From Candidatus Krumholzibacteriia bacterium (lineage in GTDB: Bacteria > Krumholzibacteriota > Krumholzibacteriia > JAJRXK01): 64,000 nt of DNA. A program made the translations under genes and the position numbers. Shown piece after piece: positions 3,369 to 25,083 of the stretch. How positions within the stretch are numbered: position 1 is the stretch's first letter; every line of letters begins with the position of its first letter. A model generated the notes under the pieces. The model searched no databases and had not been told where the DNA came from. It was given only the letters and a program-made list of their open reading frames with translations. The DNA is taken from the NCBI GenBank assembly GCA_041484665.1, contig JBGPIA010000001.1, positions 192,001 to 256,000 of the forward strand, given 5' to 3'.

Positions 3369-4718
3369 TCACTGATTCGCTGTCAACCCCTCCGGCTTGG
3401 GCAGCTCCATCGCCTGCGTGAGTGAGAGCCGCTCCTGCTGCTCGGCAATCGTGTTCATGGCGAACGTGGCGGGCTCGAAGTCGGGTCGCATGTCCAGGGC
3501 GAGCTGCAGCTGCTTGCGCGCGTTGCCGTAGTCCTCCTGGTCGGCGAACTCCAGCGCCTTGTGGTAGTGCTCCAGCGCCAGGACCGACTTGGCGCCTGCG
3601 CCCAGCTGCCCCACGTGCCGTGCGTTCCACTCGGTGAGCCGGCCGCCGGTGACGCACTCCGCCCACTGCACGATGGCCCGCTCGACGACCTTCATCACGT
3701 CAGCGCCCTTCCCCTCCGCCGTCGAGCCGCAGAGGTACTCGCCCGTCTCCACCGTGAACATGCTGATGCCGACCTTCACGCGGTCCTTCGCGTCGCGCAC
3801 GATCGAGCCTTCGATGAAGCCCTGGACGGCCGCGACGTTGCCGGCGCGGACCAGGCTCCCCTGGTCAAGCAGCTTCGCGTTGATCACGGCGTCGGACTTC
3901 AATCCGTTCTGCATGGCGATCTCGCGCATCAGCAGCTCGCGGCGGGTGTACGGCACCACCCGAACCGGCCGGGGCGCAGCGCCCGGGGTCTTCGCCGCTC
4001 CCTTGTCGGCCTTGAGCGTCCTGGAGTTGAGGTTCTCCTCCAGGAGCGACGTGACCAGCGTGGGCAGCGCAGTGGCCAGCGTGCCCAGGTCGAAGTCCTT
4101 GCGCGAGAGGTCGACCACATCGAAGTCAAGCAGCGCCAGGTTGTAGAGCCCGGGGCTGCCGCCCAAGAAACCGAAGGAGCGGTAGGCATCGAAGATGGGC
4201 TGGCGCCAGCTGGCGGGATAGGTGTCCAGCGACTTGGGCCGCCAGGCCGCGTCGTTGCGCAGCACCTCCTGGTAGCACTGCTGCGCGCTGCTGAAGTTCT
4301 TGGCGATCGAATAGAGCTCGGCCATGAGCTCGAGGCTCTCGATGCGCCCGCCCACGCTCATCTCGGCGCGGTGGTTCTCCCAGAGGGCCTTCACGCAGGA
4401 GAAGGATTCGGTGAGCTTGCCGGCGGCGCGCAGGTCGCGGCAGTTCTGCCGCTCGATGCCGAAGGTGTCCACGCCCTTGGCGTCCTCGCCAACCGCGGCG
4501 GAGGCAGCCGCCGGTGGCGTCCCGGCAGTCGCCTGCGTGCCGGGAGCGGTGGGCGTCCCGGCGGCCGGAGGCGTAGCGGTCGGCTTGGCCGTCGTGCCCG
4601 GGGGTGGCGTGCCGGCGGACGGCGGCGGCGTCCCCGCCTGCGACGCGGCAGCCGCCAGCTGCGCGCCGGGGGCCAGGACGATCAGGCCCAGCGCCAGGTA
4701 GTAGAGCGAGCGCTTCAT
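3369..4718 (-). CDS. Secreted TPR + CsgG/FlgO-like domain protein
   Basis: Signal peptide MKRSLYYLALGLIVLAPGAQLAAA; Pro/Thr linker; LALLDFD...RRELLMREI...RAGNVAAVQGFIEGSI pattern; C-terminal TPR. Confidence 0.65.
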   Translation of the reverse strand: MKRSLYYLALGLIVLAPGAQLAAAASQAGTPPPSAGTPPPGTTAKPTATPPAAGTPTAPGTQATAGTPPAAASAAVGEDAKGVDTFGIERQNCRDLRAAGKLTESFSCVKALWENHRAEMSVGGRIESLELMAELYSIAKNFSSAQQCYQEVLRNDAAWRPKSLDTYPASWRQPIFDAYRSFGFLGGSPGLYNLALLDFDVVDLSRKDFDLGTLATALPTLVTSLLEENLNSRTLKADKGAAKTPGAAPRPVRVVPYTRRELLMREIAMQNGLKSDAVINAKLLDQGSLVRAGNVAAVQGFIEGSIVRDAKDRVKVGISMFTVETGEYLCGSTAEGKGADVMKVVERAIVQWAECVTGGRLTEWNARHVGQLGAGAKSVLALEHYHKALEFADQEDYGNARKQLQLALDMRPDFEPATFAMNTIAEQQERLSLTQAMELPKPEGLTANQ

Positions 4719-4771
4719 GGTTGGGTCTCCTTCCACAGCGGGGACTGCACGCGCACAGGGGTGGCGAGCGC

Positions 4772-6389: not shown

Positions 6390-6974
6390 CTACTTGCAGC
6401 CCGCTGGATCGACCAGGACCTGCGCGTCCTTGCCAACCTTGGGGAAGAGCCGGTCCTGCGTGCCGATGCATGGCTCACCGCCGTGGATCAGGAACAGGGT
6501 GAGCACCTTTACGATGATGTTGCGCCCCTTGCCCTTCATCTGTACGGGGGAGTTCAGCTCGATCGGCGCGCCATCGGCGCCCACGGTCGATTCGAACAAG
6601 AGCGACAGCTTGCCGGCCTTGCCAGCGAAGCCATTGCCCTTGGCGTCGGTCACCTTGACCACGACGGGCGTGCCTTCCTTCAGTGCCACACAGCCCGAGA
6701 GGACCTTGTTGCGCGCGATCTCCCCCTGCAGCACCGCGCCCTTTTTTACGCTCCCGCTGCAGAACGGCGTCGGGAAGCGCACCTCCAGACTGTCTCCCTG
6801 GGCCAGCATGAGCTGCGTGTACTGGGCCCCGCCCGCTGCGGAGCCGGGCGCCGCAGCGCCGGCCGGGGTGGATGCCGCCCCGAGCGCGGCCGCCCACAGC
6901 AGGGCAATCAACGCAATCGCCGTGCCCGCTGCGGAGCCGGCCGAGCTGCCCTTCGCTTCGCGATTCGTTCGCAC
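6390..6974 (-). CDS. Secreted protein with a TrbI/VirB10-like beta-barrel domain
   Basis: GTG start with AGGAGG RBS; signal peptide; ALKEGTPVVVKVTDAKGNGFAGKAGKLSLLFEST..DGAPIEL pattern followed by a short hydrophobic segment. Confidence 0.55.
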   Translation of the reverse strand: MRTNREAKGSSAGSAAGTAIALIALLWAAALGAASTPAGAAAPGSAAGGAQYTQLMLAQGDSLEVRFPTPFCSGSVKKGAVLQGEIARNKVLSGCVALKEGTPVVVKVTDAKGNGFAGKAGKLSLLFESTVGADGAPIELNSPVQMKGKGRNIIVKVLTLFLIHGGEPCIGTQDRLFPKVGKDAQVLVDPAGCK

Positions 6975-7106
6975 CGTCGAACACCTCCTGCACCGGAATG
7001 TCAGCCGCCCGCCCGCTCGCCCGGGCCGGCACGCTTGGGCCGTCACGCTCGGGCCGCTACGCTCAGTCCCACACGCCCGGGCCGGCGCGTTCGCGCCCGC
7101 GGGGCG

Positions 7107-10100
7107 TCATGGCAGCTCGGGGAGGGCGGCAGCGAGCTCCGTCCACCACCGGGGTTTGAATTCGAACTGCAGCGTCGCCACGTCGCTGCCGCCCGACGAC
7201 GGCGGCGGCAGGGCGGCCGAGGACGCGGCGATCTGCCGGGCCGTCTCGGGCGCGACGCGCGCCGTGAGCGTGCCCAAGAGCGACGTGGCTACGTGGCCAT
7301 CCCTGGGCGGGTCCACATAGAGGTGGAACCAGACCATCCCCTTATTCTCCTCGCGGCCCTGGATCAACAGCCGGTCCTGCGGCCCCACGGCCAGCGTGCC
7401 GCCGGCGTCCACGCGGGCCGTCGCGAAGCCGGTCCCGGGCGCCGCGAGCATCGGCGGCGCGAGCACCGAGATCAGCTCGGTGGCTGAGCCACCCGCGACG
7501 CGGCTCACGGTGATGCGCGGCCGGGCAACCTGTCGGCGCGTGCCCGAGTAGTCGGCGACCGAAAGCAGATGGACTTCGATCTGCTGGAGCGGGATCGGGA
7601 AGGGGCGCCCAAACGCCGCCACCAGCTCGCGGGCGGCAGCAACCCGCGCCTTCTCGCGTGGGTCACCCTCCAGCTGCCCCAGGTCGATCGCGGAGAGTTG
7701 GCGCACCAGAGCCGCCACGTTATTGAGCGCCGCCGCGCAGGTGGCGTCGCTCGCGCCACGCAGCTGGCCCACCGCCCCGCGCAGCTTCCCGTACACGTCG
7801 CGGAAGACGGCCTGGTGGCTCTGCGCCTGGTGCTGGTTGCGGGCCAGCCACGCGCTGCAGAGATCCCCGTAGAAGCCCTGGCCCAGCGCGCCGCGCGCGC
7901 CCTGCATCGCGGCGGCCACCGCCGGCGGCGCGGGGGACGGAGCGGCCTCGATCTGGCCCAGCACATCGATCATGCGCGCCAGCGCCTCCTGACTGGGCGC
8001 CGGCAGCGCCGCATCGCCCAGACGCGCGTAGACGCTCTTCGCCGCGCCGGTCTGCGGACCGCCGATCGCGCGCCATGCCTCCAGCTTCCAACGCGCGACA
8101 TGTGCGGCATAGTCGGCGACGGTGCAGGGGCTGGCCGCCGCGTTCGCCGGGCACAGCGCCACCGCTGCCGCAAGCAGCGCCTCGCCCTTGCCGGCCGCTC
8201 CGCCTGCCACCGCGCGCGCCGCCGCGTAGAACGCGTCCGCCTGCGCCAGCCGGCCGGGCACGGGCCGTCCGCCGTCGCGCAGGCGCGCCGCAGCGGCCTG
8301 CGCTTTCTTCACTCGCTCGGCCAGGTCGCCCTCGCTCAATGCAGCCGCACGATAGGGCACGGCCAGGGCCAGCGCGGAGAGCCCCGCGCGCTGCTCGGCG
8401 TCCATCAGGTCGCTGGCGGCGGCGGCGCCCTCGGCGATCTGGGCCAGCGTGGCCGGCGCGGCACAGCGCTCGGGGAACCCATCGGCGGCGGCCAGTAGTG
8501 CGCGAGCCGCCCGGGTGAACCCATCGCCCCCGCGCGTAGCAGCCAGCTTGCCCGCTGCGTCGGCGGCGCGCTGCAGAGCGTGCGCGCGGGCGACCGCCGT
8601 GCCCGTCACCGGATCGTTCTCCTTGCCCTCGGCCGAGGGCACGTGCAGCCTGCGCTCCTGCGCGTTGTAGGCCGCACGCAGCTGATCCAATGAGCCGGCG
8701 CTGAGCAGCTTCTGCAGCCCCTGCAGGCGGACCACCGACTCCGCGGCAGTCTGCGCTGCCTCCTGCAGGCTGGCCGCCACGGCCTTGAGGCTCTCGTCGC
8801 CGCGCGCCGACTTCGCGGCCTTCACCAGCTGCTCCTCGAGCGCGGGACACTCGGTGTCCAGCGCCGCGCTCGCGCGCTCGCCCAACGTTGTCAGCGCCGA
8901 CTTCATGGCCTCGGTGAGATCGAAATCGCGCGCGCCTTGGGCCAGCATCTGGGAGAGGATACCCTCGTGCTCGTCGACGAGCTGCGCAAGCGTCTTCGCG
9001 CTGGCGCGCCGCAGGCGCTCGCCGGACTGTACGTTCCCCGACTCCTGGCGGGCCGAGCGCGACAGCAGCACGCCCACGAGCGCGCCGGTGACCAGCACCG
9101 AGACGGCCACGATCACCAGGCCGCTGCGCGAGCGCCGCGAGCGACGAGACGAAGGTGGCAACGGCGGCGCCGGGGGTGGGACGCCGGCGGGCCGGTGCTG
9201 GAAGGGAAGCGCCGCGGCGCCGACACCCTCACCGGCGCCTTCGCGCAGCACGCCGCCGGCGGGATGCGGCGCCGCGGCGCCGGCCGCCGCGGTCGCCGCC
9301 GCCAGCGAGCCGACCTCGCTGCGACGCACCAGGCCCGTCGCGTGCGCCCAGTCCCGACGCTCCAGCGCCGCGAACAGATCGTTGACGTATCCAGTGGCGT
9401 CCGGCGGCAGCTGCGGCGGGCGCATGTCCTGCACCATCTGCAACGAGCGGCGGAAACTCGCCTCGTCCTGGCGCATGGCGGCCACTGCGAAGTTCTCGGC
9501 GTTGCGGTAGGCGAAGGTGGCCAGGCTCAGCCAGCGCCGCCGTGCGACCGGCGCCAGCTCCATCAGCTGCCCGAACACCTCCTCGGCCGCCGGGCTGTCG
9601 CTGGCCGAGGGCAGATGCAGGCGTCCCTCGGACAAGAGCCGCGTTAGCATCGCCCGCAGCATCGGGTACCGCTCGGGGAAGATCGCCCGCAGATCCTCGG
9701 CGCCGGTGGGATCCGACGGGAACTCCATGGGCGGGAAGGGCGTCTCAGGCGTCCACGCCTTCAGCAGCTCGCAGCGGCGACCGAGATGGAAGGGGTTGAA
9801 GTCGAGGGCGGCGTACATCTCCGCAGGAATGCGCACGATGTGGCGCAGCAACGCCCCGGGCCGCCCGCCGGCGTCGCGCCCCTGGTAGGTGATCTGGATG
9901 ACGGCGTAGTGCGATGGGTTGCCCGGCGGCGGGTCCTGATTCCACAGCGGAACCTGTACCAGCGCCCGTGTGAAGTCGGCCCCGGGCTCGTACTCGCCCC
10001 ACTGGTTGCAGATCTGCTCGTGCTGCTCGATGGCAGCCGCGTCCAGCCCAGGAGTGACAGCATGGGTGTGATGGCCGGGCTTGAGCCCGGGCAGGGCAAG

Positions 10101-10133
10101 TGAGGCGTAGATCTGTTGCTCGATGGTGTCCAT
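7107..10133 (-). CDS. Bitopic membrane protein with N-terminal GAP1-like (GTPase-associated protein 1) domain and a large helical periplasmic region
   Basis: EQQIYAS...GHHTHAVTPGL and GRDAGGRPGALLRH motifs; Pro-rich linker; TM LVIVAVSVLVTGALVGVLL; lies directly downstream of the GTPase gene. Confidence 0.6.
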   Translation of the reverse strand: MDTIEQQIYASLALPGLKPGHHTHAVTPGLDAAAIEQHEQICNQWGEYEPGADFTRALVQVPLWNQDPPPGNPSHYAVIQITYQGRDAGGRPGALLRHIVRIPAEMYAALDFNPFHLGRRCELLKAWTPETPFPPMEFPSDPTGAEDLRAIFPERYPMLRAMLTRLLSEGRLHLPSASDSPAAEEVFGQLMELAPVARRRWLSLATFAYRNAENFAVAAMRQDEASFRRSLQMVQDMRPPQLPPDATGYVNDLFAALERRDWAHATGLVRRSEVGSLAAATAAAGAAAPHPAGGVLREGAGEGVGAAALPFQHRPAGVPPPAPPLPPSSRRSRRSRSGLVIVAVSVLVTGALVGVLLSRSARQESGNVQSGERLRRASAKTLAQLVDEHEGILSQMLAQGARDFDLTEAMKSALTTLGERASAALDTECPALEEQLVKAAKSARGDESLKAVAASLQEAAQTAAESVVRLQGLQKLLSAGSLDQLRAAYNAQERRLHVPSAEGKENDPVTGTAVARAHALQRAADAAGKLAATRGGDGFTRAARALLAAADGFPERCAAPATLAQIAEGAAAASDLMDAEQRAGLSALALAVPYRAAALSEGDLAERVKKAQAAAARLRDGGRPVPGRLAQADAFYAAARAVAGGAAGKGEALLAAAVALCPANAAASPCTVADYAAHVARWKLEAWRAIGGPQTGAAKSVYARLGDAALPAPSQEALARMIDVLGQIEAAPSPAPPAVAAAMQGARGALGQGFYGDLCSAWLARNQHQAQSHQAVFRDVYGKLRGAVGQLRGASDATCAAALNNVAALVRQLSAIDLGQLEGDPREKARVAAARELVAAFGRPFPIPLQQIEVHLLSVADYSGTRRQVARPRITVSRVAGGSATELISVLAPPMLAAPGTGFATARVDAGGTLAVGPQDRLLIQGREENKGMVWFHLYVDPPRDGHVATSLLGTLTARVAPETARQIAASSAALPPPSSGGSDVATLQFEFKPRWWTELAAALPELP

Positions 10134-10179: not shown

Positions 10180-12624
10180 CTACTCCGTCGGGAATGCCTC
10201 GCTCAGCGGCTGAACGAACGAGTCGTTGACGAGCTTCTCCAGTCCCTCGAAGACCACCTCGGTCTTCGCTCCGCCAGCGCCTGGGCACGCGATCGAGAGC
10301 GCCAGCTTGTGCAGCTCGAAGATGTGGCCGGCCTTCTCGCCGCAGGCGTTGACCTTCTCCGCGCCCGCCTTCTGCAGGCCGACGCGCACCTCGGCGCCGG
10401 GCGCCCAGCGCACGTCCATGGAGAAGCCCGCCTTGGCCGTGCTGCGCGCCCACTCCTGGCTGATTGGGTCCCAGTAGACGACGACGAAGCCGTCGGGTGC
10501 CGACTTCACCGTCAGCTGCAGCACCGCGCCCTTCTCCTTGAGCGTCGCCAGGCGTTGCTTGTAGCGGTCCAGCGCCTGCCCGCGCTGTCCGGTGAGGGCG
10601 GTGTCGCGCAGTCGCCGCTCGGTGTCGGGGTCCTCGAACCACCCGAGGTCACCGCTCTTTTTGTGCTCCGCGATCTGCGTGCTCAGTGTGCGCTCGCCGA
10701 CCCCTTTGATTTGGCGCATGGCCCAGCCTGCTACGGGCTTGAGGTCGTTCTCCGGGACCTCGCGCAGCTGCTGGAGGATGGTGCGGGCGTCGCCCGGCGA
10801 CTGGGCCCCCAGCGCATCCGCCATCAGCCCCAGGTACTCCAGGAGCTTCTCAGCCGTCGCGGCTAGCGTGGAGAAGTCCGCGACGTCGCTCTGCTTGGCA
10901 GCGGTGGCGAAGTCCTGCACCGTCTTACGCAGCGCACCCAGGTCCTCGCCCGGGTTGTTGCGTTTGCAAAGGGTGTCCAGCTGATGGAGGATGTCGTCCC
11001 ACTGGGTGCGCAGGGACCGTTGCGCGCCCGTGTAGTGCATCTGCTGGCATCCCTCGGCGCACTCCCGCGCGAGCTTGTCGTACTCCTCGCGCAGGGTCCC
11101 GCGCACGGGCACGAGCTTGTCGCAGATCTTGCGGCAGCTGTCCACCTGAGCGTCGGTCGCGGCATGGGTGAGCTGGGCGAAGCGCCGGGCGAACTCGTGC
11201 ATCTGCGCCGCCACGCCGCGGTTGTAGGCCGTGATGTGGCGCCAGACCCCCTCCTCCACCTGCGTCTGCTGTTGCCCGCGCAGGTCGCCGAACCAGCGGT
11301 GCTCGCGCTGCCAGGTGTCGGTTCCGAATCCCTCGGCCAGCGCCCTGAGCTCGGCGGGCGTGCGCAGGGCGGGCAGCTCGTCCTGCAGGAATAGGTGGGC
11401 CTTGTAGCGGGCCTCGAGCTCGTTGGCGCGGTGCTTCACCTCGCCCGCGCCAGCCTTGGGCAGCGAGAAGAAGGCGAAGTTCTGCACGATCAGGCGCCGG
11501 GATTGCTTGTGCAGGACGGTGCCGATCCGCTCCTTGGACTCACCGCCGTCGAGCATCTCGGCCAGTGACTCGCGGTGCGGCAGCAGGTGCCACGCGTAGA
11601 AGACCGAGTAGAAGATGAGCACGATCAAGGCGAAGCGGAAGACGAAGCGCCGCACTGCATTGAAAGCGGCAATCCTCTCCTTCTGCCGGATGGTGTCCAC
11701 CACCCACAGGAACGGCGTCTTGACGCCGATGCCGTTGGGATCTTCGGGTGGGCGCGTGGCGACCTTGCCGTCTTGGGTCTCGAGCTTGCGCACGTGGCCG
11801 ACCGACGACACGAAGAAGACCTGGAACTCCATGGAGAGCGTCATCAGGAAGTCGAAGAACAAGGCCAGGCTGCCCAACGTCTTGCGCACCTGCTCTTGGA
11901 ACACGATGTTGCGCGCCACGTGATACTGGTTGCAGATGCCGTCAACGAATTCGTTGAAGCTCTTGGCCTTCAGGTACTCGGCCTTGCGGCTGACCAGTAC
12001 CACCTGGCTCTGGTTCTCGAAGCCCGCCAGCCCGTCGGCCTTGGTGATCATCAGGCCGATGGGGATGCGCAGTCCCTTGCCGCCGCCTTCGCTGACCTGG
12101 TTGATCATGACCGTGAAGTTCATGATCTCGCGCTCGCACTTACGCGGATCGGCGATCATCTCGGGCGACAGCAGGAACAGGATGGCGTCGCACGCCTGGA
12201 AATAGCGGATCAGGTTCTCCTTGGCGGCGCTGTCCTGCTCCAGATCGATCGTCTCGCCCTTGTAATCGCGCGTGCTGAAAGGGAACTGGCTGCCGCCCCG
12301 GATGGCGGCCTTGAAATTAAGCTGGGTCTCCTCCACCGTCCCGGGCAGCCACTCCCCCGAGCGCAGGATGTTCAGGTTGTTGATGAGCTGCTTGCCGGTG
12401 TTGGGGTCCTCGGGGTCGAGGCGGAACTCCTGGTCGTGGCGGCAGGCCTTGTAGAGCATGGTGAAGAACACGCTCTTGCCCACGTTGCTGGGACCGTAGA
12501 TGCCGATGCGCCGCTCGCCCGGCAGGCGGTCGGCGGCCGCTTCCTTGCCTTTGCCGCCCTTCTTCCCTTTGAAGGGCTTGCCGATGGCCTTGAAGATATT
12601 GATCAGGAACTTCAGCAGGGCCAT
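10180..12624 (-). CDS. Membrane-anchored TRAFAC-class P-loop GTPase with C-terminal extracytoplasmic domain (TssM-like topology)
   Basis: G1 GPSNVGKS, G3 DYKGE, G4 TKAD, G5-like FVSS; TM FVFRFALIVLIFYSVFYAWHLL; about 460 aa C-terminal region. Confidence 0.8.
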   Translation of the reverse strand: MALLKFLINIFKAIGKPFKGKKGGKGKEAAADRLPGERRIGIYGPSNVGKSVFFTMLYKACRHDQEFRLDPEDPNTGKQLINNLNILRSGEWLPGTVEETQLNFKAAIRGGSQFPFSTRDYKGETIDLEQDSAAKENLIRYFQACDAILFLLSPEMIADPRKCEREIMNFTVMINQVSEGGGKGLRIPIGLMITKADGLAGFENQSQVVLVSRKAEYLKAKSFNEFVDGICNQYHVARNIVFQEQVRKTLGSLALFFDFLMTLSMEFQVFFVSSVGHVRKLETQDGKVATRPPEDPNGIGVKTPFLWVVDTIRQKERIAAFNAVRRFVFRFALIVLIFYSVFYAWHLLPHRESLAEMLDGGESKERIGTVLHKQSRRLIVQNFAFFSLPKAGAGEVKHRANELEARYKAHLFLQDELPALRTPAELRALAEGFGTDTWQREHRWFGDLRGQQQTQVEEGVWRHITAYNRGVAAQMHEFARRFAQLTHAATDAQVDSCRKICDKLVPVRGTLREEYDKLARECAEGCQQMHYTGAQRSLRTQWDDILHQLDTLCKRNNPGEDLGALRKTVQDFATAAKQSDVADFSTLAATAEKLLEYLGLMADALGAQSPGDARTILQQLREVPENDLKPVAGWAMRQIKGVGERTLSTQIAEHKKSGDLGWFEDPDTERRLRDTALTGQRGQALDRYKQRLATLKEKGAVLQLTVKSAPDGFVVVYWDPISQEWARSTAKAGFSMDVRWAPGAEVRVGLQKAGAEKVNACGEKAGHIFELHKLALSIACPGAGGAKTEVVFEGLEKLVNDSFVQPLSEAFPTE

Positions 12625-12627
12625 GGC

Positions 12628-13650
12628 CTAGCCCTCCTTCGCCGGCGCCGCGGCTTTGGCGTCGCGATCGAGGTGCTGCAGGTCCTGCTCGATCAAGTCG
12701 CCCGCCCGCCGCAGGTCCGTCTCGATCTGGCTGAGGCGGTTGCGGTTCTGGTGGCCCCAGAAGAACAGCCCCATGGACATCCCCAGCAGGATCACGACGA
12801 TCAGCACCGTCTGAAGGATGTAGGCGCCCTTGCGCTTGCTCAGCTCGTAGGCGATGTACTCGCCGGCCATGCGCTCGACCATGCCGCGGAACAGCCGGGC
12901 CACGCCCGCCTTGAAGCGGGTCCACCACGTCTCGCCCTTGTCGTACTCGTAGCGCTCGATCTGGTAGCTCAACAACGGTGCGCCGTCCAGGTGCTGCTTG
13001 CGCAGCCGCGGGAAGACGCCGTCCTTGCTCAGGCGCTGCTCCAGCGATCCCGGCACGCGGATCAGGTTCTCGCCGGGGTACTTCACGCGGCGCCGTGCCA
13101 GCTGGTAGACGAGCTCGCCTGGCTCCTGCTCCACGAGCTGGCTGGCCTTCTCGTCATCCCAGACCGGCACCTTCTCGAGGTTCTCGAAGCGCGCGATCCG
13201 CTCCACCAGGAACAGACACAGCTCCAGCTTGCCGCCGAGCGCGCCCTTCTTGAGCAGCAGCGGCAGCACGTAGGTGTGGACGAAGCGCAGGTCGGGCACC
13301 TGCCGCTGGCGCGTCTTCTCGCACCAGCGATACGCCTGCTCGAAGCCGCGCCCGTAGTCGGCGTGGTAGCGGTGGTGGATGGTCAGCGCGTGCGAGACCA
13401 CCTGTCGCAGATCGGAGGTGTCCAGGTCGGCGATCGAGACTGCGTTGAACAACGCCTGGTCCAGGGCAAAGGCCTGCGCCTCCACCTCGCCGGACAGCTC
13501 GATGGCGCGCTCGACGCTCTCGTACAGACGCATGAACTCCTCGGCGGAGAGCGTTGCCGGGGTGCGCTCGTAGGTCTCGATCAGCTGGTAGAGCCGACCG
13601 GTCCACTCCTGCCCCTTGTCGACGATCTGGGTCTCGGCGCCCTGGGCCAT
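12628..13650 (-). CDS. Hypothetical protein, helical cytoplasmic domain with one C-terminal TM helix (TssL-like topology)
   Basis: 340 aa; RBS GGAG; TM AYILQTVLIVVILLGMSMGLFFW near the C-terminus; lies between tssK and the GTPase gene. Confidence 0.7.
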   Translation of the reverse strand: MAQGAETQIVDKGQEWTGRLYQLIETYERTPATLSAEEFMRLYESVERAIELSGEVEAQAFALDQALFNAVSIADLDTSDLRQVVSHALTIHHRYHADYGRGFEQAYRWCEKTRQRQVPDLRFVHTYVLPLLLKKGALGGKLELCLFLVERIARFENLEKVPVWDDEKASQLVEQEPGELVYQLARRRVKYPGENLIRVPGSLEQRLSKDGVFPRLRKQHLDGAPLLSYQIERYEYDKGETWWTRFKAGVARLFRGMVERMAGEYIAYELSKRKGAYILQTVLIVVILLGMSMGLFFWGHQNRNRLSQIETDLRRAGDLIEQDLQHLDRDAKAAAPAKEG

Positions 13651-13737: not shown

Positions 13738-15207
13738 TCACTCCTCGTAGTAGATGCGCACCCGCTCGTCGGGCTCCGCGGAAAGGCCGCGCAGATCCAG
13801 CAGCCCGCGCGACGCGATCGACACCGCGCTCAGGGTTGGCTCGCCGATCTCGGAGAACAGCGCCACGAGCTTCTGCGGGTCGGCGGTGGCATCGACGGCG
13901 ACGCGGAACATGTTGGCGGTGACGCGCTCGTAGCGGTCGATCATCCAGAGACCGGCGTTGGGCCGCGGGTTCTTCTCCAGCAGGCCGCGGTCGCACACCA
14001 ACAGTAGGCTCTTGGGATTGCGCACGGCCATCTCGCGCAGGAAGCAGTTGTGCCAGGCGTCCCCCAGCTCGAAGGTGCGGGCCCCGTAGGAAGCGAGCTT
14101 GTATTTCTTCTCCTTGTAGTAGTAGACGCCGGTCTCGACCGGGGCGGTCTCGACCACGGGCGCGGCCCCCAGCAGGTACTCGGCCACCTCGTTCATCGAC
14201 TGCAGCAGCGACTGCGCGCGGTAGAAGATGCGGCCCAGCCGCTCGTGGTCGTAGGGCTCGCCCAGGAAGCGGTCGACATCCTCGAAAAAGTGGGGATCGC
14301 CCGAGGTGAGTTTGCCCTCTTGCACGAAGGTCTTGATCCCGTGCTCCAACGCGGCCGGGCGCGCCGAGAGCAGCGCGCGGAACAGCCGTAGCACCCGCGT
14401 CGTGGTGTCCCACAGCCCGTAGGGGTGGACCTCGGGGGCGACCTCCGGGATGCCATCCTCCAGCGTCGCGACCGCCGCCAGCCACGGCAGCACCACTTCG
14501 GAGATGAGCGACTCCTTGGGCTGGCGGGCGGCCGCGGCGGCGGTGAGCAGCTCGCGCAGGCGGCGCAGTTTCTTGCGCAGCTCGGCGGCGGTGCGCCCCA
14601 TGGCCGGCCACGCCGCCACGGTCAGCGCCGGCGGCTGATAGTCGGGCGCGGGCTCGACCTCCACGCCGTCCCAGACGTATTCGGCGATCATGAGCGCGCT
14701 GCGGCTGGAGGATGCGGACGGCACGATCCGCGCGCGCAACGCTGGCACGACGAAGGGGCGGCGCGCCGGCTCCTCGGCAGGATCGGGCTCCCCCACCTCG
14801 GTCGTGGCCAGCTCGGCGGCAGCCTCCGCGTCGGCCGGCTCGACCAGCACGCCCAGCCGCACCGGACGCGGCGGATTGCGTTCAAGCGTGCCGGCGGCGG
14901 AGAGCATTGCGGAGAGCTGCGGCCACGCCTCCTCGTCGAAGGCGAGCACGGTTCCGTCGGGAGCGAGACCGTTGATGCTGTGGATGTGGACGGTCAGGCG
15001 GTCGGCGCCCTGTTCGTGAGAGAGGCGCGCTCCGGACCCGCCGCCGCGCGCCGGTGGCACGAGCCCGTAGCCGCCAGCGGCCGGCGCAACCGCGCGTGCG
15101 AGCCACGCGCGCGCTTGGACGGCGCAGGCCTCCGCCTGTCGCAGGTGCCGGTCGGAGAGGAGCATCGGGTTCTTCCAATTGACCGCGAAGATGCCGTCGG
15201 CAGACAT
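13738..15207 (-). CDS. tssK: Type VI secretion baseplate subunit TssK-like protein
   Basis: N-terminal AVNWKNPMLLSDRHLRQ (TssK VxW..GM.L...H motif), GYGL and DYQPPAL motifs; T6SS context. Confidence 0.75.
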   Translation of the reverse strand: MSADGIFAVNWKNPMLLSDRHLRQAEACAVQARAWLARAVAPAAGGYGLVPPARGGGSGARLSHEQGADRLTVHIHSINGLAPDGTVLAFDEEAWPQLSAMLSAAGTLERNPPRPVRLGVLVEPADAEAAAELATTEVGEPDPAEEPARRPFVVPALRARIVPSASSSRSALMIAEYVWDGVEVEPAPDYQPPALTVAAWPAMGRTAAELRKKLRRLRELLTAAAAARQPKESLISEVVLPWLAAVATLEDGIPEVAPEVHPYGLWDTTTRVLRLFRALLSARPAALEHGIKTFVQEGKLTSGDPHFFEDVDRFLGEPYDHERLGRIFYRAQSLLQSMNEVAEYLLGAAPVVETAPVETGVYYYKEKKYKLASYGARTFELGDAWHNCFLREMAVRNPKSLLLVCDRGLLEKNPRPNAGLWMIDRYERVTANMFRVAVDATADPQKLVALFSEIGEPTLSAVSIASRGLLDLRGLSAEPDERVRIYYEE

Positions 15208-15540
15208 CGCTGCTCTCCTCCGCTTCCCCGAGCAGGCACACGCAGACAGCACCCTTGCCGTTGCGGGTGGAACCGAGCCACGCCCCTGCCGGACAGTTTC
15301 GCCATGCAGGCGCCGGATTCAACAGATTTCCGAGCTCGCCCTCTTCTGTACACCCGCCTCGAGCGGGCGTCCACACCTGAGCCGCTGGAGCTTGCCAGCG
15401 GCCGAAACAAAGGTTGCCTCGCCCGGTCGGCGGTCGGACAATTGAGCGCAGAAGTGCCCGGGGTCCGCCACGATACCAGCTGGATGCGGCGGTGGGTCCT
15501 CCGCGGCCGCCCTCCCGGAACCGTCGAAGGAGATTCCGCC

Positions 15541-16950
15541 GTGATCGAGGAGCCGACTGCCACGGATCGATGGCCGTTGGCGCGCCGCGGACTGGGCGGT
15601 GCGCGGCCGCGCGGCGCGACGACCGGTACCCGTCTGCTTTGCCTGCCCTGCCTGCGCCTGTGGATGGCCCTGCTGAGCGCCGCATCGCTGGTCACGGGTT
15701 GCGCCACGTCGCCCTACGAACGTGGCCGCCAGGCGCTCACCAGCGATCCCGCCGCCGCGGCCCGCGCGTTCGACCAGTCGATCGCAGCCGGCTCGCGCGT
15801 CACCGACGCCACGCGCGAGCGCGGCGCCGCTCGCCTGCAGAGCGGCGACACCGAGGGCGCACTATCGGATCTGGAATCGGCGCGCGCCATGGGCGATCAG
15901 AGTGCGCGGCTGGATTGGCTTCTGGGCAACGCGTACTCCAAGGCCGGACGCTACGCCGAGGCCGCCACCGCCTATCGCTCCTACGAGCAGTTCACCGGCA
16001 ACCGTGCCGTCCGCGAGGCGACCCGCGAGCGGGTCGCCCAACTCGACCACCAGGTGATGGCGGCTGCGGCCACGTCGTTGCGCGAGGCGCGCATGGCGGG
16101 AACGCAACCGCCCGACAACAGCGTGGCCGTTTACGCCTTCCAGCCTGCTGCAGGCAAGCAGGCGCCCGTGGACGACCAGAAGATCTGCCGCGCCCTCAAC
16201 GTGCTGGTTGCGGCCGACCTGGCGAAGGTCTCGGCGCTGAAGACGATCGCCGCCGACCAGCTCGACCTGATCTACCGCGAGCAGCGATTCACGTACGAGA
16301 ACCGCCAGTTCTTCGAGCCCGCGTCGCTGCCGGCCGCTGGAAGCCTCTTGCCGGCGCGCCACATGGTGCGCGGTGTGTATGGCAGTCTGCCCAAGGAGCA
16401 CCTGGCGATGGGTGCGGCCTGCTACGACGCGCTGGCAGGCAGCTCCGCTCAGTGCTCGCAGCAGGAGGGCGCGACCTCCGCGCTATTCGACATGCAGACG
16501 CAGCTGGTGCTCGACGTCCTCAAGTCCCTCAGCGTCAAGCCCACGGCCGCCGAGCTGGCGGCCATCGGGCGCAAGCCCACGCGCAATCTGCGGGCGTTCC
16601 TTGCCTTCAGCGACGGCTTGTACATGCGCGACACGGGCGACCCGCAGGGCGCGCAGAAGGCCTTCGAGAAGGCAGCCACCATCGATCCGGGGTTCACGCT
16701 CGCCAGCGAGGCCGCAGCCGCGACGGCGGTGGACATCGCCGGCGCCGACGTGGTGATCGACGTGCCGCCGCCCGTGGAATCCAGCGCCGCACAGGAGCGC
16801 GCCATGTCCAGCGCGCTCCAGCTGGGCCTGGGACTGATCCCCGATCTGGCCTCGGGTGACGGGACTGCCGGCACGGTCGAAGAGGTGGTCTCCGCGCGCG
16901 GCGAGGCGACGCTGCACATCACCGCGCGCGTCGGAGGTCAGCAGCCATGA
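15541..16950 (+). CDS. TPR + CsgG-like lipoprotein
   Basis: GTG after GAAGGAG RBS (alternative ATG 15664); lipobox VTGC; TPRs; SVAVYAF...ADLAKVSALKTI...PTRNLRAFLAFSDGL. Confidence 0.7.
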   Translation: MIEEPTATDRWPLARRGLGGARPRGATTGTRLLCLPCLRLWMALLSAASLVTGCATSPYERGRQALTSDPAAAARAFDQSIAAGSRVTDATRERGAARLQSGDTEGALSDLESARAMGDQSARLDWLLGNAYSKAGRYAEAATAYRSYEQFTGNRAVREATRERVAQLDHQVMAAAATSLREARMAGTQPPDNSVAVYAFQPAAGKQAPVDDQKICRALNVLVAADLAKVSALKTIAADQLDLIYREQRFTYENRQFFEPASLPAAGSLLPARHMVRGVYGSLPKEHLAMGAACYDALAGSSAQCSQQEGATSALFDMQTQLVLDVLKSLSVKPTAAELAAIGRKPTRNLRAFLAFSDGLYMRDTGDPQGAQKAFEKAATIDPGFTLASEAAAATAVDIAGADVVIDVPPPVESSAAQERAMSSALQLGLGLIPDLASGDGTAGTVEEVVSARGEATLHITARVGGQQP

Positions 16951-18119
16951 GCAGAACGCAGACGATCGCTGCCGTGCGCGGCGCCTCCAGGACCGCAGTG
17001 CTCGGCGCGTCGCTGACTGCCGCGCTGGTCGTAGGGGCGGTGCCGCGAGCCGTCGCCGACGTCGCGTTCGCGCAAGAGCGCACTCTCTACACTGCTATGG
17101 GCCAGAATTCCCTGCGGACCTGGGTCGTGAAGGACAAGCAGACCGGCGACCAGCGCACCTTGCGCCAATTCGCCAGCCGCTGGTTCGGCACCATCAAGAC
17201 CGGCCCCAACGCCGAGCTGGTGCTGTACACGTCGGGGGGATTCGCGCAGGACCATGCCAGCGACGTCGACGTCGCCGAGATTCGCGGGATCTCTGACGTG
17301 AAGCTCAAGGGCTTCTACCACGTCGCGTCCGATCAGCTGCTCCTCTCGGCGGGCGTCAACCTGCCTACCGGCATCACCAAGCTCTCCGACGAGCAGGTGC
17401 GCGCTGCGAGCGCCGTGGCGCCCAACGTCTACGGTTTCCGCCAGAAGCGCTACGGCGAGGGGTTCGACCTCGACCTGGGCGTCTCCGCGGGCAAGCACCT
17501 GTCGCCAGACTGGACGCTGGGCGGTGGAGTGAGCTTCCTGCACAAGGGCGCCTACGACCTCGACTTGTCCACCCGGTACGATCCGGGCAGCGAGATCGCC
17601 TTCACCGTCGGCGCCGACTTCGCGGGCGGTCGGGCAACGGCTGCCACCGACCTGGTCTACCGCCTCTTCACCTCGGACCAGACCAACGGTCAGAAGAGTT
17701 TCGACGAGGGCGGGCAGCTGGAGCTCAACGTCCGCAGCTCCGTGCGTGGAGAGCGCTTCGGACTGGATGTATCGGCGCGCGACGTCGTCAAATCGTCCAA
17801 CACGATCCTCGCGCCGCTGCCGGCGGGCACCGATGACCGCGTGGATAACGGGAACAACTTCTGGCTGTGGGTGACGCCCAGCTACCAGCCTTCGGAGGTC
17901 GTCGCGCTCAAAGGCCTGTTCGAGTACACGGCCACCGGGCAAGGGCAGCAGCAGCCGAGCAGCGGCTGGGCGACGGGCTTCGGCGGGGGGATCGACCTGC
18001 AGCTGCGGCCGTCCGCGATCCTGGAGGCGCGGGCAGAGCGCCTGGTGGGCGGTAGCCAAGCCAAGAACGTGGACCTCTCCGGCTGGGACGTCCTGCTCGG
18101 CCTGCGCGTGCAGCATTGA
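16947..18119 (+). CDS. Outer-membrane beta-barrel protein
   Basis: Signal peptide; alternating amphipathic strands (LSAGVNLPTG, YDPGSEIAFTVGAD); C-terminal strand WDVLLGLRVQH; ATGA-coupled to the upstream gene. Confidence 0.7.
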   Translation: MSRTQTIAAVRGASRTAVLGASLTAALVVGAVPRAVADVAFAQERTLYTAMGQNSLRTWVVKDKQTGDQRTLRQFASRWFGTIKTGPNAELVLYTSGGFAQDHASDVDVAEIRGISDVKLKGFYHVASDQLLLSAGVNLPTGITKLSDEQVRAASAVAPNVYGFRQKRYGEGFDLDLGVSAGKHLSPDWTLGGGVSFLHKGAYDLDLSTRYDPGSEIAFTVGADFAGGRATAATDLVYRLFTSDQTNGQKSFDEGGQLELNVRSSVRGERFGLDVSARDVVKSSNTILAPLPAGTDDRVDNGNNFWLWVTPSYQPSEVVALKGLFEYTATGQGQQQPSSGWATGFGGGIDLQLRPSAILEARAERLVGGSQAKNVDLSGWDVLLGLRVQH

Positions 18120-20131: not shown

Positions 20132-21106
20132 TCACCCCGCCAGATAGCTCGTCCGGCCCAGCCGCGCCTGCCAGGGGTCGCCCAGAACTGCGTGGCGGTC
20201 CTGCGGCCGCAACACGAGGTCGATGTCGTACGCGACGCCGGCCGGAGCCGCGGCGGCGAGCAGCGCCTGCGCCTTCGCGCGCCAGGTCGCGTCGCGATCG
20301 AACGCCAGGAAGGACGAGAGCGGCACGGGCCCGATGCGCGCGATGATCTTGGGCGCCGGATCGACGAATTGCGGACCCAGCAGCACGCCCTCCCCCAGGC
20401 GCGCGCCCGAGGTTCCCAGCGGCGCCCGCAACGCCTGTGGCAGGCACAGCCCCGGACCGCGCGCGATCACGATCGCAACCGGCAGCCCCAGGAACTGCTC
20501 GAGCACGGTGGCGATCCCCGCCGCCGGACCGACCCAGCGGTGCAAGCGCTGTAGCTCGCTGGCCAGGAAGATCGCCTCCTGGTCGTCCAGCGGGAGGTCC
20601 GCCAGCCCAACGAACGCAAGCCCGCGCCGCGCGAAGGCCGGGTCATTGCCCACCAGGCTGAGGCCGTCGCGCAGGCGCTCCAGATCGCGGTCCAGGCGGC
20701 CCAGCGCCTTGTCGAGCACGGTGATCAGCCGACGGCCGGGGCCGTAGGCGCCCACCTGGCGCTCCCAGAAGTCGAGCGTCTGTCCGGGCTCGATGGCGAC
20801 GTGCGCCTCGTCCTGCGTGGTGGGCAGCGGCTCGAGGAACTCGTGCGGCAGTCGCTCGGCCAGCCCGTTGCGGGCCACGAACAGAATGACCGCGGTACGC
20901 TCGTCCAGTGGGGTGCCGGCCGCCGGAATCTGTCCGACCACCTCGCCGCGGAACGACTCCAGGGGCCCCACGGGGATCAGCTCGACGCGCTGCGGGTCGA
21001 CGCCCAGCGCCGCCAGCGACGCCACCGCCGCGCAGGCCCTCGGCGTCGGGATGCGCCGCAGCAGGTCCGGCATCGCCGGCGTGGATGCGCTCGCCCGGTC
21101 AGGCAT
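20132..21106 (-). CDS. tssG: T6SS baseplate subunit TssG with N-terminal PASTA-like domain
   Basis: GLAERLPHEF, LEQFLGLPVAI, ARLGEGVLLG and RIGPV motifs; follows tssF; N-terminal MPDL...GEVVGQIPAAGTPL...VILFVA. Confidence 0.75.
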   Translation of the reverse strand: MPDRASASTPAMPDLLRRIPTPRACAAVASLAALGVDPQRVELIPVGPLESFRGEVVGQIPAAGTPLDERTAVILFVARNGLAERLPHEFLEPLPTTQDEAHVAIEPGQTLDFWERQVGAYGPGRRLITVLDKALGRLDRDLERLRDGLSLVGNDPAFARRGLAFVGLADLPLDDQEAIFLASELQRLHRWVGPAAGIATVLEQFLGLPVAIVIARGPGLCLPQALRAPLGTSGARLGEGVLLGPQFVDPAPKIIARIGPVPLSSFLAFDRDATWRAKAQALLAAAAPAGVAYDIDLVLRPQDRHAVLGDPWQARLGRTSYLAG

Positions 21107-22850
21107 TGCGGGCGGGGGTGCTCTCGTCGCTCTGCGCAAGCTGCACGACCACGATCTGACCGGCCGGCGCCCTCGCCTGCAGGTCGCGTTGCAGGGCGTC
21201 CTGGAAGGCCTCCCGCTCCAGGTCGGAGGTGAACGCCCCCGTCCGGTGGCGCGCCGTGACGGTGACGCATGAGCCCACGCCGCCCGCCGTGCGCGCGACG
21301 CCGCGACCAACCTCGGCGCGCACGATGCGCGTCGGGTCGAAGGCCGCGGCCAGCGCCCGGTAATCCAGCGCGGTCACGGCCCGCGCGCGGCTGGCCAGCG
21401 CCGAGCGCAGCTCGGCCACGTGGTGCTGCGGCTCCGCCGGCGCGCCGCCGCCGCGGCTGGGCGCCACATTCACTGCATCGAGCACTCCCGGACAGAGGCG
21501 ACGGTCGTAGATCAGATTGATGCTTCCGGGAGCCAGGCCGTCGGCCTCGGCGCCGTGGGTAGTGGTGTAGGCCACCTCGATCTTGCGCGGCCTCACCGCG
21601 CGCTCGGCCGCCGTCAGCCGCAGGCGCGCCACGCCATCGGGTGAGCGGTCGAAGTAGTAACGATTGGGTGAGGCCAGGCCGTCGGGGGTCTCGGCGTCGA
21701 CGTAGCTGAGCGTGTTGGCAGCGTCGAGCACGCTATCGATGCGGAAGACCTGGCGCCACGCGACGGGCAGATCGAGCAGGTGGACCGCGTCCCCGCCCAC
21801 GTTGATCTTGGCCGTCTCACTGTTCTGGTTGAAGGCCACGACACAATTGGCCAAGAGCCGCGCGCGCTGCAGCGCGGCCTCCCCCACCCCCGCCGAGACC
21901 TTCACGCGCACCCAGCAGCGGTTGGGTACCGATGCCAGCTTCCCCGCCGCGATCCCCTCGGTGGCCGCCGCCGGTACCGCGCCCCGCCCGGCGCGCAGCA
22001 CCGCGAGGTCGATCGGGACGAAGTGGCGGTCGTAGGGGCTGTAGGGGCGGCGCTGGTCGGAGCGCACGCGCAGAAGCAGCGCCTCCTGGTCCACCGACCA
22101 CGGTTGCAGCCGGTAGCGGCTGCCGGGGACGTAGGCGGCACCCGCATCGTCGGCGCCGGCCTCCCACGTCGCCCAGATCAGCCCGAGCACCGCGCGCTCC
22201 TCCCCGAGCACGAATACCGGCACCTCGGGCACGTCCAGGCCGTCGGGCACGTCGAGCCCCAAGTGGAGCACCAGCTGCCCGGTCGCCGGGACGCGCCAGG
22301 AAGCGCCGCCGGCCACAGGCGCCCCCAATTCCTCGCTCCCGTCGGCCAACAGGCGCACCTCGCCCGCTGCCGTCTGCAGCAACACCGCCGGGCCACCCAC
22401 GCCCGGCACGAGCGCCTCGCCGACGGGCCCGAAGTGGATCGCGCGCTCCTCCTGTTGTCCGCCTTCGCCCGTGACGGCCTTGCGCCCCACCACCTGCAGC
22501 CCCTCGTCCACGCGGGTCGCGGGGTCTTTCACAGAGAGTTGCAGCACGGTCGACGACGGCACGGGAGCGCGCGGGAACGCCAGCAGGCTCTCCACCAGCT
22601 TCTCGTAGGAGAGGCCGATCACCGAGTCGAGCTTGGCGTAGAGCCGCGCGTACTCGCGCGCCACGGCGCCGAGCAAGAGCCGCACCAGCGGGTCGGTGAG
22701 GGTCGGATCGCGCGACAGACCCGGGATCTGCGCCGCGGCGTCGTCGAGCATGCGCTGCAGCACGGCGGCGTGGTCGGCCTCGTCGCGGCGCAGCCAGGTA
22801 AAGGTGGGGGCCGGGACGTCGCTGCGGGTGCGGTCGCCTTGGGTGGCCAT
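21099..22850 (-). CDS. tssF: T6SS baseplate subunit TssF / baseplate J-like
   Basis: DPLVRLLLGAVARE, ANCVVAFNQ, YTTTHGAEADG and RARAVTALDY motifs (Bacteroidota-type TssF/gp6-like). Confidence 0.8.
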   Translation of the reverse strand: MATQGDRTRSDVPAPTFTWLRRDEADHAAVLQRMLDDAAAQIPGLSRDPTLTDPLVRLLLGAVAREYARLYAKLDSVIGLSYEKLVESLLAFPRAPVPSSTVLQLSVKDPATRVDEGLQVVGRKAVTGEGGQQEERAIHFGPVGEALVPGVGGPAVLLQTAAGEVRLLADGSEELGAPVAGGASWRVPATGQLVLHLGLDVPDGLDVPEVPVFVLGEERAVLGLIWATWEAGADDAGAAYVPGSRYRLQPWSVDQEALLLRVRSDQRRPYSPYDRHFVPIDLAVLRAGRGAVPAAATEGIAAGKLASVPNRCWVRVKVSAGVGEAALQRARLLANCVVAFNQNSETAKINVGGDAVHLLDLPVAWRQVFRIDSVLDAANTLSYVDAETPDGLASPNRYYFDRSPDGVARLRLTAAERAVRPRKIEVAYTTTHGAEADGLAPGSINLIYDRRLCPGVLDAVNVAPSRGGGAPAEPQHHVAELRSALASRARAVTALDYRALAAAFDPTRIVRAEVGRGVARTAGGVGSCVTVTARHRTGAFTSDLEREAFQDALQRDLQARAPAGQIVVVQLAQSDESTPARNA

Positions 22851-22862: not shown

Positions 22863-23255
22863 TCACGCCTCCAAGTCGTAATCCAACGTCAGGAGTTGAC
22901 GCGTGGCCCGCACCGTGGCGACCACTCGGATGCGGCGGTAGGGGAAGTAGCGCCCCGGATCCTTGCCCGTGAATTCGATCTTGTCCACCACGATGCGCGG
23001 CTCGCAACGGCCCAGCGCATTGCGGATCTCGCGCACGACGTCCTGGGCCCGCCCCTGACGGAACTCGTGGTGCGGCAGGTCGGCCCCGAAGTCGGGATCG
23101 CCCGCTGTGCCCGGCGGTTTGGCAGCACCCTGCACCGGGTTGGTGAGGACCAGCCGGATGGTGTGGGCGATGGAGTCCTCCAGCGAGCCGGAGGCCATGC
23201 GGCCGCCTTCCAGGCGCAACGGGAGCACGAGGTAGGGTGCGCGTTCGTCCGGCAT
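22863..23255 (-). CDS. tssE: GPW/gp25-family baseplate protein TssE
   Basis: YLVLPLRL...SLEDSIAHTIRLVLT...DPDFG...IRNALGRCEPRI. Confidence 0.85.
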   Translation of the reverse strand: MPDERAPYLVLPLRLEGGRMASGSLEDSIAHTIRLVLTNPVQGAAKPPGTAGDPDFGADLPHHEFRQGRAQDVVREIRNALGRCEPRIVVDKIEFTGKDPGRYFPYRRIRVVATVRATRQLLTLDYDLEA

Positions 23256-23256
23256 C

Positions 23257-25083
23257 TCAGTTGAGCTTGACCATGGCGCCCTTGACCGAGACCTCCGAGC
23301 CGCCCTGGACCTCCACCTTCATCTTACCGCCCACCTTGGTGTTCATGCCGGAGACCTCCACGTCCGCGTTGGACTGTATGAGGATCTTGCCCTTGGCCTT
23401 CAGGTTGAGCTCGCCCTCGGCCTCCAGGCTGATGTTCTTCTTCGACTTGATGGAGATGTCCTCGTCGGCCTGCACCGTGACTTTTTTCTTCGCCGTGACG
23501 TTGACGTCGCCCTCGGTGGCGATCTCGATCTTGGCCTTGGGGTCGCTCTTGTCGTGTACCAGCGTGATGCGGTTCTTCTTGTCGGGCGTGGTGATCTCGA
23601 TCTTCTCCTCGTCCTTCGTATCGCGGAAGAGGATCTGGTGGCCGCTCTTGGTGAGCAGCACCTTCGCCTCGTTCTTGTCGTAGTCATTCTCGGCGGCCTT
23701 GACGGGCGCCATCTCCGCCGGTCCCCTGCCGTTGTACAGGCTTCCGATCACCACTGGCTGCATCAGATCACCGCCCACGAACGCCACTACCACCTCGTCA
23801 TCGACCTCGGGCAGGAAGTACATGCCCCAGCTCCTGCCGGCGTGGGGCATGGCCACGCGCGCCCAGTTGCTGTCCTGGTCGCCGCTGTCCCCGAGCAGAT
23901 GATGGTACCTGACCTTCACACGTCCGCGCTTCTCGGGGTCCCTGTTGTCGGTGACCACGCCGGCGAACACGTTCGGCTGTTGCGGCCGCTGGAGTGTGCG
24001 CTGCGGATGGGCGATGTCGGTCGGGACGCAGGTGAAGCGATTGCGGTAGCCGCGGCCGTCGCCCTGCAGGGTGTGGCGTACCCGCGTGACGTAGTACTTC
24101 CCCTTCTGGTCTGCGCTCACCCCCGAGATCGTGAGCTCGGTCCCCGGGTCGAGGCCGAGATCGTCGCTCTCCCCCATCCCGACCACCAGGCCGGCGAGCC
24201 AGCCCTCGCGCAGGTGCTGCAACTCTCGGTCGAGCTCGCCGAGATCGCTGGGCGGAAGCGACGGGAGTAGGTGCCCCAGCTTGTTGAAGCTCTGCTGGCT
24301 GCGGTCCTTCGCCTTCACGGCATAGGGATGGCTGGCGCTGTCCGGCGGCTTCGTCTCGCCGAACAGCGGCTTGTGGCTCTTGGCGTCCCAGCCCCGAGCG
24401 GCGAACTTGCCAGGCGCCATGCGCAGCTTCACGCTGAAACGGTGCAGCGCCGCCTCGGTCTCCTCGCCACCCATGGAGAGCTTGGAGCTGCCCGCCTGGA
24501 GGTTCGCCGCGACCTTCAGCTTCTGCCCGTCATACCACGCCCACAGCCCCTCCAGCTGGCACATGCGCCGCAAGAAATCGTAGTCGGTCTCGCCGTGCTG
24601 GAGGACGTATTCGTGCTTGGTCGTGGTGGTCGCGCTGACCTCGCAGAACGCTCCATAGGAAGACGCCAACTGCTTGAGCGCATCCGCGGTGGTCATCTGC
24701 AGCCAGCGGATGTTGCGCGGCACGCCGTCCATCAGGATGGTCTGGGAGGCGCCCCGCAGCGTCACGGAGTAGGCGCCCGTGAGCAGACGCTGGTGGCGCA
24801 CTTCGGTGACGATGCCCTTGAACTTGATGCCCTGCTCCGCGGTCTTGCCCTGCCAGGCGGCCTCGATCTCCAGCGGCTGGCCCAGTGCGTCGTAGAGGCC
24901 ATCGAGCGGCTCGCTGCCGCCGCCCACCAGGTCGCCGGCGTCGGCGGCCAGGCTCAAGCACTCCACGCTGAAGGTGTGGTGCCCCCACAGTGGCTGGTCG
25001 AGGACGATGCTGCCGCAGCGGATCTTCTTGCTGGCGAGGTCGGTCCCCGACAGCTTCACGGACACCTTGGTGGCGAACGCCAT
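23257..25083 (-). CDS. vgrG: VgrG spike protein (gp27 + gp5 OB-fold + short beta-helix)
   Basis: QHGETDYDFLRR, VTDNRDPEKRGRVKV, WARVAMPHAG, FLPEVDDEVVVAF; ends VKGAMVKLN. Confidence 0.92.
   Translation of the reverse strand: MAFATKVSVKLSGTDLASKKIRCGSIVLDQPLWGHHTFSVECLSLAADAGDLVGGGSEPLDGLYDALGQPLEIEAAWQGKTAEQGIKFKGIVTEVRHQRLLTGAYSVTLRGASQTILMDGVPRNIRWLQMTTADALKQLASSYGAFCEVSATTTTKHEYVLQHGETDYDFLRRMCQLEGLWAWYDGQKLKVAANLQAGSSKLSMGGEETEAALHRFSVKLRMAPGKFAARGWDAKSHKPLFGETKPPDSASHPYAVKAKDRSQQSFNKLGHLLPSLPPSDLGELDRELQHLREGWLAGLVVGMGESDDLGLDPGTELTISGVSADQKGKYYVTRVRHTLQGDGRGYRNRFTCVPTDIAHPQRTLQRPQQPNVFAGVVTDNRDPEKRGRVKVRYHHLLGDSGDQDSNWARVAMPHAGRSWGMYFLPEVDDEVVVAFVGGDLMQPVVIGSLYNGRGPAEMAPVKAAENDYDKNEAKVLLTKSGHQILFRDTKDEEKIEITTPDKKNRITLVHDKSDPKAKIEIATEGDVNVTAKKKVTVQADEDISIKSKKNISLEAEGELNLKAKGKILIQSNADVEVSGMNTKVGGKMKVEVQGGSEVSVKGAMVKLN

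Follow-up and report, generated by a model that had tools for sequence, protein, structure and literature searches.

The gene cluster and its GTPase

The window, a stretch of 64,000 nucleotides from a Candidatus Krumholzibacteriia bacterium (contig JBGPIA010000001.1, positions 192,001 to 256,000), carries a cluster of genes for a type VI secretion system (T6SS). On the minus strand the gene order is tssB, tssC, two hcp, vgrG, tssE, tssF, tssG, tssK, a gene for a 340-amino-acid protein, a GTPase gene, a GAP1-N2 gene and a gene for a small exported protein. The GTPase gene (10180..12624, minus strand) encodes an 814-amino-acid DO-type protein with a transmembrane (TM) helix and sits in the slot of tssM. 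An earlier note on this DNA had placed it inside a T6SS operon; tail, baseplate and tssK genes do flank it.

From the N-terminus the protein displays an amphipathic helix, a G-domain, one TM helix (amino acids 327-345; 11590..11646, minus strand), a predicted periplasmic helical region and a beta domain. The G-domain has a small-GTPase fold with a G1 motif GPSNVGKS (amino acids 44-51; 12472..12495), a G3 motif DYKGE (120-124; 12253..12267) and a G4 motif TKAD (194-197; 12034..12045), all on the minus strand; G4 is followed by GF as in the TKxDxxxGF of TssM. G1, G3 (DxxG) and G4 (N/TKxD) are invariant in 53 of 53 members of the T6SS family. The intact motifs, N-terminal amphipathic helix and single TM segment described in the earlier note are thus confirmed. 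A candidate G2, T96 (T46/S6/N1 over 53 sequences), and a candidate G5 region, S273/G276, conserved across the family, are assigned by position alone. The Walker-B glutamate, E124 in the window protein, is kept in 14/14 close relatives and in 7/53 of the wider T6SS family.

Assignment of the protein to the DO-GTPases, also suggested earlier, has marginal Pfam support, with scores of 32.2 and 27.9 bits just above a cut-off of 27; canonical DO-GTPase genes reach 176-221 bits. In HH comparisons the G-domain scores 185-286 against other DO-type groups, 84 against three canonical DO-GTPase2 sequences, 58 against the TssM N-domain (TssM-N) and 35 against a housekeeping-GTPase control of two sequences only; the DO-type groups came from matches to this family's own profile, which biases their scores towards likeness. 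A housekeeping identity is rejected on these values. Clustering with TssM N-domains or housekeeping GTPases, which the earlier note named as evidence against its proposal, was not found, the DO-type groups being far closer. The comparisons support placement of the G-domain in the DO-GTPase clade, not with ordinary TssM or housekeeping GTPases. A plasmid search with the GTPase returned three weak cyanobacterial G-domain matches and nothing else.

Conservation and neighbouring genes

Thirteen full-length relatives show 41-63% identity, and a relative from a record titled Candidatus Krumholzibacteriota (L069) shows 49%; the family, like most of the wider GTPase-TM set, spans about 620-835 amino acids. 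Gene order was counted at loci of the best 80 of 124 relatives from a genome scan, the denominators being loci with enough flanking sequence. The record titles of these 80 name Zixibacteria, Krumholzibacteriota, Ignavibacteria, Latescibacterota and unnamed bacteria. A tail-anchored gene in the TssL slot lies immediately upstream of the GTPase gene at 71/77 loci and tssK lies upstream at 65/71. At least four of the VgrG, F, G, C, E and Hcp genes are nearby at 50 of 58 loci, and a small exported-protein gene (family f4) is found downstream at 68 of 73.

Presence of the GTPase follows that of the sheath protein TssC. In the window's phylum 22/208 genomes have the GTPase, 22/208 have TssC and 21 have both; two genomes depart from this pattern, one that is 75% complete and lacks TssC and one that has a weak 61-bit TssC match and no GTPase. 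In Zixibacteria (the phylum of genome G510) each is found in 36/71 genomes, and the 36 are identical. As related genomes are kin, the counts are given without a statistic. The GTPase apparently belongs to the core genes of a T6SS lineage that seems not to have been described before, and is not an inserted conflict module; a literature search, with subscription journals largely outside its reach, found no description of this lineage.

Several individual loci differ in detail. Genome G524 carries two tssK-L-GTPase-GAP1 modules (L249, L250) and two TssC matches on other contigs. A contig-end fragment, L073:1-1122, is 48% identical to the window GTPase and belongs to a record titled Wenzhouxiangella; the fragment is possibly mis-binned. 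The GTPase gene at G064:C4:2113-4321 contains an in-frame TAA stop.

The remaining T6SS genes of the window lie on the minus strand, with the exception of a divergent ClpV/TssH-like AAA+ ATPase gene (28402..30849, plus strand). They encode TssB (27643..28086; start approximate, the open frame extending to 29256), the TssC sheath (26189..27628; PF17541, 211 bits), two Hcp/TssD copies of PF17642 (copy 1, 25725..26123; copy 2, 25175..25606), VgrG (23257..25083), TssE (gp25; 22863..23255), TssF (21099..22850), TssG (20132..21310; true start probably later) and a T6SSiii-like TssK (13738..15252; start probably 15207). The source genome, 93.65% complete, has this single TssC match and one DO-GTPase2 match. 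A weak PASTA-like match precedes the TssG domain in both loci scanned (window 20132-21310, minus strand; L006:15030-15932). A profile of PAAR-bearing proteins from the loci has matches away from the cluster, at about 43230-46500 (plus strand) of the window and at G000 C3:289560-291461 (48 and 141 bits).

The tail resembles that of T6SS-iii. Profiles of TssK and TssC score 102-132 and 257-293 bits, respectively, against T6SS-iii references, and in a TssC tree 12 new sequences stand apart from three of T6SS-iii (100/100; unrooted, long branches flagged). Known membrane anchors were not detected. IcmF (PF06761) was found in 0/38 genomes, with control genome G295 positive, and TssN, a nearly ubiquitous marker of the T6SS-iii membrane complex, in 0/39, with 3/3 plasmid controls positive; both genome sets include G173, which has a weak TssC only. 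In the source genome IcmF-N, DotU and IcmF were not found (E. coli control positive). At the loci, TssN, TssO, TssP and TssR gave no blastp match, and the best TssO/P/R profile score there was 11.3 bits.

The TssL-slot gene of the window (12628..13650, minus strand) encodes a 340-amino-acid helical protein with a C-terminal hydrophobic helix and no Pfam match. Profile comparison detected no homology of it to DotU, and Atlas and PDB searches gave no usable match. The f4 gene (6390..7046, minus strand) encodes a conserved small exported beta protein; members of the family have 170-180 amino acids (e.g. L075:12221-12748), and two further homologs occur elsewhere in the source genome. A resemblance of f4 to VirB10/TrbI-like domains, seen by eye, found no Pfam or PDB profile support and was set aside.

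An opposite-strand block of TPR, TPR-CsgG, f15, f14 and Ser/Thr kinase genes also accompanies the cluster (e.g. L100:12852-19600), with conservation in 29-32 of 46 loci. In the window it is represented by two TPR proteins of one locus-linked family whose relatives carry CsgG domains (15625..16950, plus strand; 3369..4736, minus strand) and by a conserved exported f15 protein without a Pfam match (16947..18119, plus strand), an outer-membrane barrel by eye only. Where at least 7 kb of downstream sequence is available, TPR/CsgG, f15 and f14 genes are found in 31-38 of 46 loci and the kinase in 29 of 46. The f14 protein carries variable leucine-rich repeat, laminin-G or cohesin domains. The block is a candidate for an outer-membrane part and for phospho-regulation.

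Directly downstream of the window GTPase is the gene for a 1008-amino-acid GAP1-N2 protein (7107..10133, minus strand), in the slot of tagF. It comprises a GAP1-N2 domain (amino acids 4-137, 37.1 bits), a hydrophobic helix at about amino acids 339-359, a helical region and a C2-like C-terminal domain. Pfam gives no GAP1-M or GAP1-C match in the window protein, and one relative matches GAP1-M at the cut-off. The C-terminal domain determined most of what fold searches returned, and the model of the N-domain is too poor for a fold comparison with TagF. A GAP1 gene directly follows that of the GTPase at 6/73 loci (7 counting L070, where the called start overlaps); the GAP1 profile matched 6/39 genomes, each of which had also supplied sequence for building it. 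GAP1 is accessory to these T6SS loci and not obligatory with the GTPase. On the GTPase tree GAP1-bearing T6SS loci lie on several deep branches and GAP1-less loci in two groups; an ancestral GTPase-GAP1 pair with later loss of GAP1 is consistent with this pattern.

Proposed role of the GTPase

The presence of a GTPase fold is not in itself new for a T6SS, because TssM already contains the motifs hhhhDXXG and (N/T)KXD and hydrolyses GTP (Ma et al., 2012; PMC3346141). Between the family profile and TssM-N there is an alignment of 158 columns (probability 92.6%, E 4.4e-7), covering G3, PVxxxxTKxDxxxGF and the last strand. PF14331 (IcmF-related_N) is matched weakly by 24/40 family members at E<=1 (best 9.2e-5) but not by the window GTPase itself. 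A TssM-N hidden Markov model ranks the window GTPase first of 28,490 six-frame open reading frames in the genome, but with an E of 0.47. Direct orthology is neither favoured nor refuted by the trees: neither of them has TssM as the sister group of the family, and an approximately unbiased test does not reject a grouping of the two (p-AU 0.218). Family monophyly has an SH-aLRT of 99 in a quick tree, with one long-branch outsider inside, and values of 36/67 in a careful one. The GTPase is TssM-like in position, standing after tssK and a tail-anchored gene, and in architecture; its periplasmic domains do not place it in the TssM family.

It is proposed, with a probability of about 0.6, that the GTPase is a TssM-equivalent inner-membrane anchor around which a third type of membrane complex for T6SS is built, one driven by nucleotide. 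Support consists of sequence, motifs, gene order, co-occurrence and the non-detection of known anchors. The amphipathic helix and TM segment would keep the G-domain on the cytoplasmic face (N-in/C-out), where it may pair with the tail-anchored TssL-slot protein; the baseplate would be docked via TssK. The C-terminal part, about 470 amino acids, would be periplasmic and in contact with the f4, TPR/CsgG, f15 and f14 products, such that the envelope is spanned. By analogy with Agrobacterium TssM, whose Walker mutants lose Hcp secretion (PMC3346141), binding or hydrolysis of nucleotide might power a change of conformation that secretion requires. GAP1-N2 occurs at a minority of deep-branching loci, that of the window among them, and would regulate the G-domain as an accessory factor.

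Several observations weigh against an anchor. The TssL-slot protein shows no homology to DotU (probability 0.5% in profile comparison). The periplasmic part of the GTPase has no IcmF or IcmF_C match in a Pfam scan and is poorly conserved within the family (HH 12.9%, middle region). Likeness to TssM is unspecific, as three other DO-type groups score 60.7-74.3 on TssM-N and the family 57.9. TssJ, TssO, TssP and TssR were outside the genome-wide searches, the last three being compared with the loci only, and the genomes are incomplete metagenome-assembled ones that are kin and not independent. At 39 loci of Planctomycete relatives, which resemble the family in GTPase-TM architecture and also have GAP1-N2, the neighbourhood contains no T6SS genes; architecture alone therefore does not imply an anchor. 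Finally, at 6/77 loci (L088, L096, L104, L113, L125 and L122) the GTPase gene stands apart from both tssK and the gene in the TssL slot. TssC is located elsewhere in 4/4 tested genomes of this kind. At five of these loci tandem lipoprotein-like genes precede the GTPase gene (the one set scanned has PD40), and at three a PAAR gene lies downstream.

The earlier note had suggested a GTP switch that gates T6SS assembly or firing. In this explanation, which is considered rather unlikely, the GTPase is a regulatory switch taken from DO-GTPase/GAP1 conflict systems and modulated by GAP1, and the f4, f15, TPR/CsgG and TssL-slot proteins form the anchor. The adjacent GAP1-N2 gene fits such a switch; a structural anchor is likelier than an added gate because the GTPase fills the TssM slot and TssM itself was not detected in this T6SS. 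It is improbable that the contractile machine is instead tethered to the membrane and acts inside the cell, in defence or self-killing, when triggered through GTPase and GAP1. No known trans-envelope complex was found, and DO-GTPase/GAP1 systems have been proposed to act against invaders near membranes (PMC7159879), but TssK, a ClpV-like ATPase, VgrG, PAAR genes and conserved exported proteins are present, and the tail is nearest to T6SSiii among the references compared. An independent GTPase-GAP1 conflict module that entered the locus by chance or hitch-hiking is largely refuted and very improbable, for although GTPase-TM plus GAP1-N2 loci do occur apart from T6SS in Planctomycetes, the GTPase tracks TssC in 36/36 and 21/22 genomes, and keeps a fixed position behind tssK, and no FNIII match was found among 23 window proteins.

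More than one complex, TssJLM or TssNQOPR, serves to dock T6SS tails to the envelope. If the proposed anchor is correct, a Bacteroidota-like tail joined to a module of tssK-L-M shape with a DO-GTPase as its basis would add another docking solution. The lineage is common in uncultured phyla, occurring in roughly half of the sampled Zixibacteria genomes, and searches that require TssM or TssN would miss it. It would also be the first concrete machine in which a DO-GTPase is placed, the function of that family being only predicted, and its compact G-domain with intact motifs would be a test case for what the nucleotide site of TssM does, a matter long in dispute.

Comparison with known systems

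With the T6SS-iii of Bacteroidota the new lineage shares TssC of PF17541, Hcp of PF17642 and a related TssK. It differs in that TssN was not found in the 39 genomes and no TssO/P/R likeness was seen at the loci, and in its occurrence in Zixibacteria, Krumholzibacteriota, Latescibacterota and Ignavibacteria records; T6SS-iii (TssNQOPR) is described only from Bacteroidota among complete genomes (Bongiovanni et al., 2024; PMC10781749).

Ternary systems of DO-GTPase and GAP1, with FNIII components in the N2 type, have been proposed as anti-invader devices near membranes (Kaur et al., 2020; PMC7159879). The terms T6SS and IcmF are not in the text of that paper, nor T6SS or taxon terms in two of its supplementary files; its neighbourhood source data could list such loci. 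The window shares with these systems the DO-GTPase Pfam matches, the Walker-B glutamate, a GAP1-N2 gene directly downstream and association with the membrane. It differs in the single GTPase copy, the marginal Pfam scores, the lack of an observed zinc ribbon and of any FNIII match among 23 proteins at 1.9-32.3 kb, a dispensable GAP1 and a GTPase strictly tied to T6SS. Conserved T6SS genes, not variable effectors, flank the pair. The ternary conflict system of the earlier note is thus not borne out, with GAP1 not found in 33/39 genomes. Its link between the two system classes does stand, because a DO-clade G-domain and an adjacent GAP1-N2 gene occur in a T6SS cluster. The GTPase-TM relatives in Planctomycetes have the G-domain in common with the window protein and, to a weak degree, the C-terminal domain too (HH 92% against the main T6SS clade). 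Of 80 loci with their genes, the 39 that extend over at least 5 kb have GAP1-N2 matches in 19 open reading frames; the GTPase-GAP1 pair therefore exists outside T6SS. At L264-L340 such pairs, with GAP1-N2-TM proteins, have conserved upstream genes of about 330 and 650 amino acids without Pfam matches.

GAP1 is comparable to TagF (PF09867), a T6SS repressor, in that it sits right after the TssM-slot gene and has stand-alone forms of similar size (232-284 amino acids). Its GxDxxGR aligns with the SxDRxGR of TagF in a colinear alignment, tryptophan on tryptophan; the SDR of TagF is required for Fha binding (Lin et al., 2018; PMC5995506). The difference is that no Fha gene was noted at the loci, none having been searched for. 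HH scores between GAP1-N and TagF, 12.3-20.6, do not rise above a block-shuffled null (median 11.6, maximum 20.8), and PDB sequence and Atlas searches with GAP1 did not return TagF, the Atlas matches being GAP1 clusters only.

From TssM of T6SS-i (TssJLM) the window GTPase differs in length (814 against about 1,150-1,370 amino acids for TssM frames), in an amphipathic helix in place of the N-terminal TM segments, in an unrelated periplasmic part and in the lack of a PF14331 or PF06761 match and of a DotU partner. DO-type groups overall score 34-74 on TssM-N, and several outside T6SS (L149-L178; P0081-P0173) match the TssM N-domain at HH 94-96%. The scores suggest that TssM itself belongs near the DO-GTPase clade. 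A tentative and more doubtful extension is that this third architecture is a missing link, TssM-TagF and DO-GTPase-GAP1 both descending from one membrane GTPase and regulator module with a Rag/DENN-like fold; the anchor would then have begun as a GTP switch that may still gate firing here. TssM and the window GTPase have in common a TRAFAC-type domain that carries DxxG and TKxDxxxGF and is cytoplasmic (by prediction in the window GTPase), a TM segment and a large C-terminal part. In addition, tssJKLM are contiguous and products of adjacent genes interact (PMC10781749), and the GTPase gene is third in a run of tssK, tail-anchored gene and GTPase gene that mirrors tssK-tssL-tssM.
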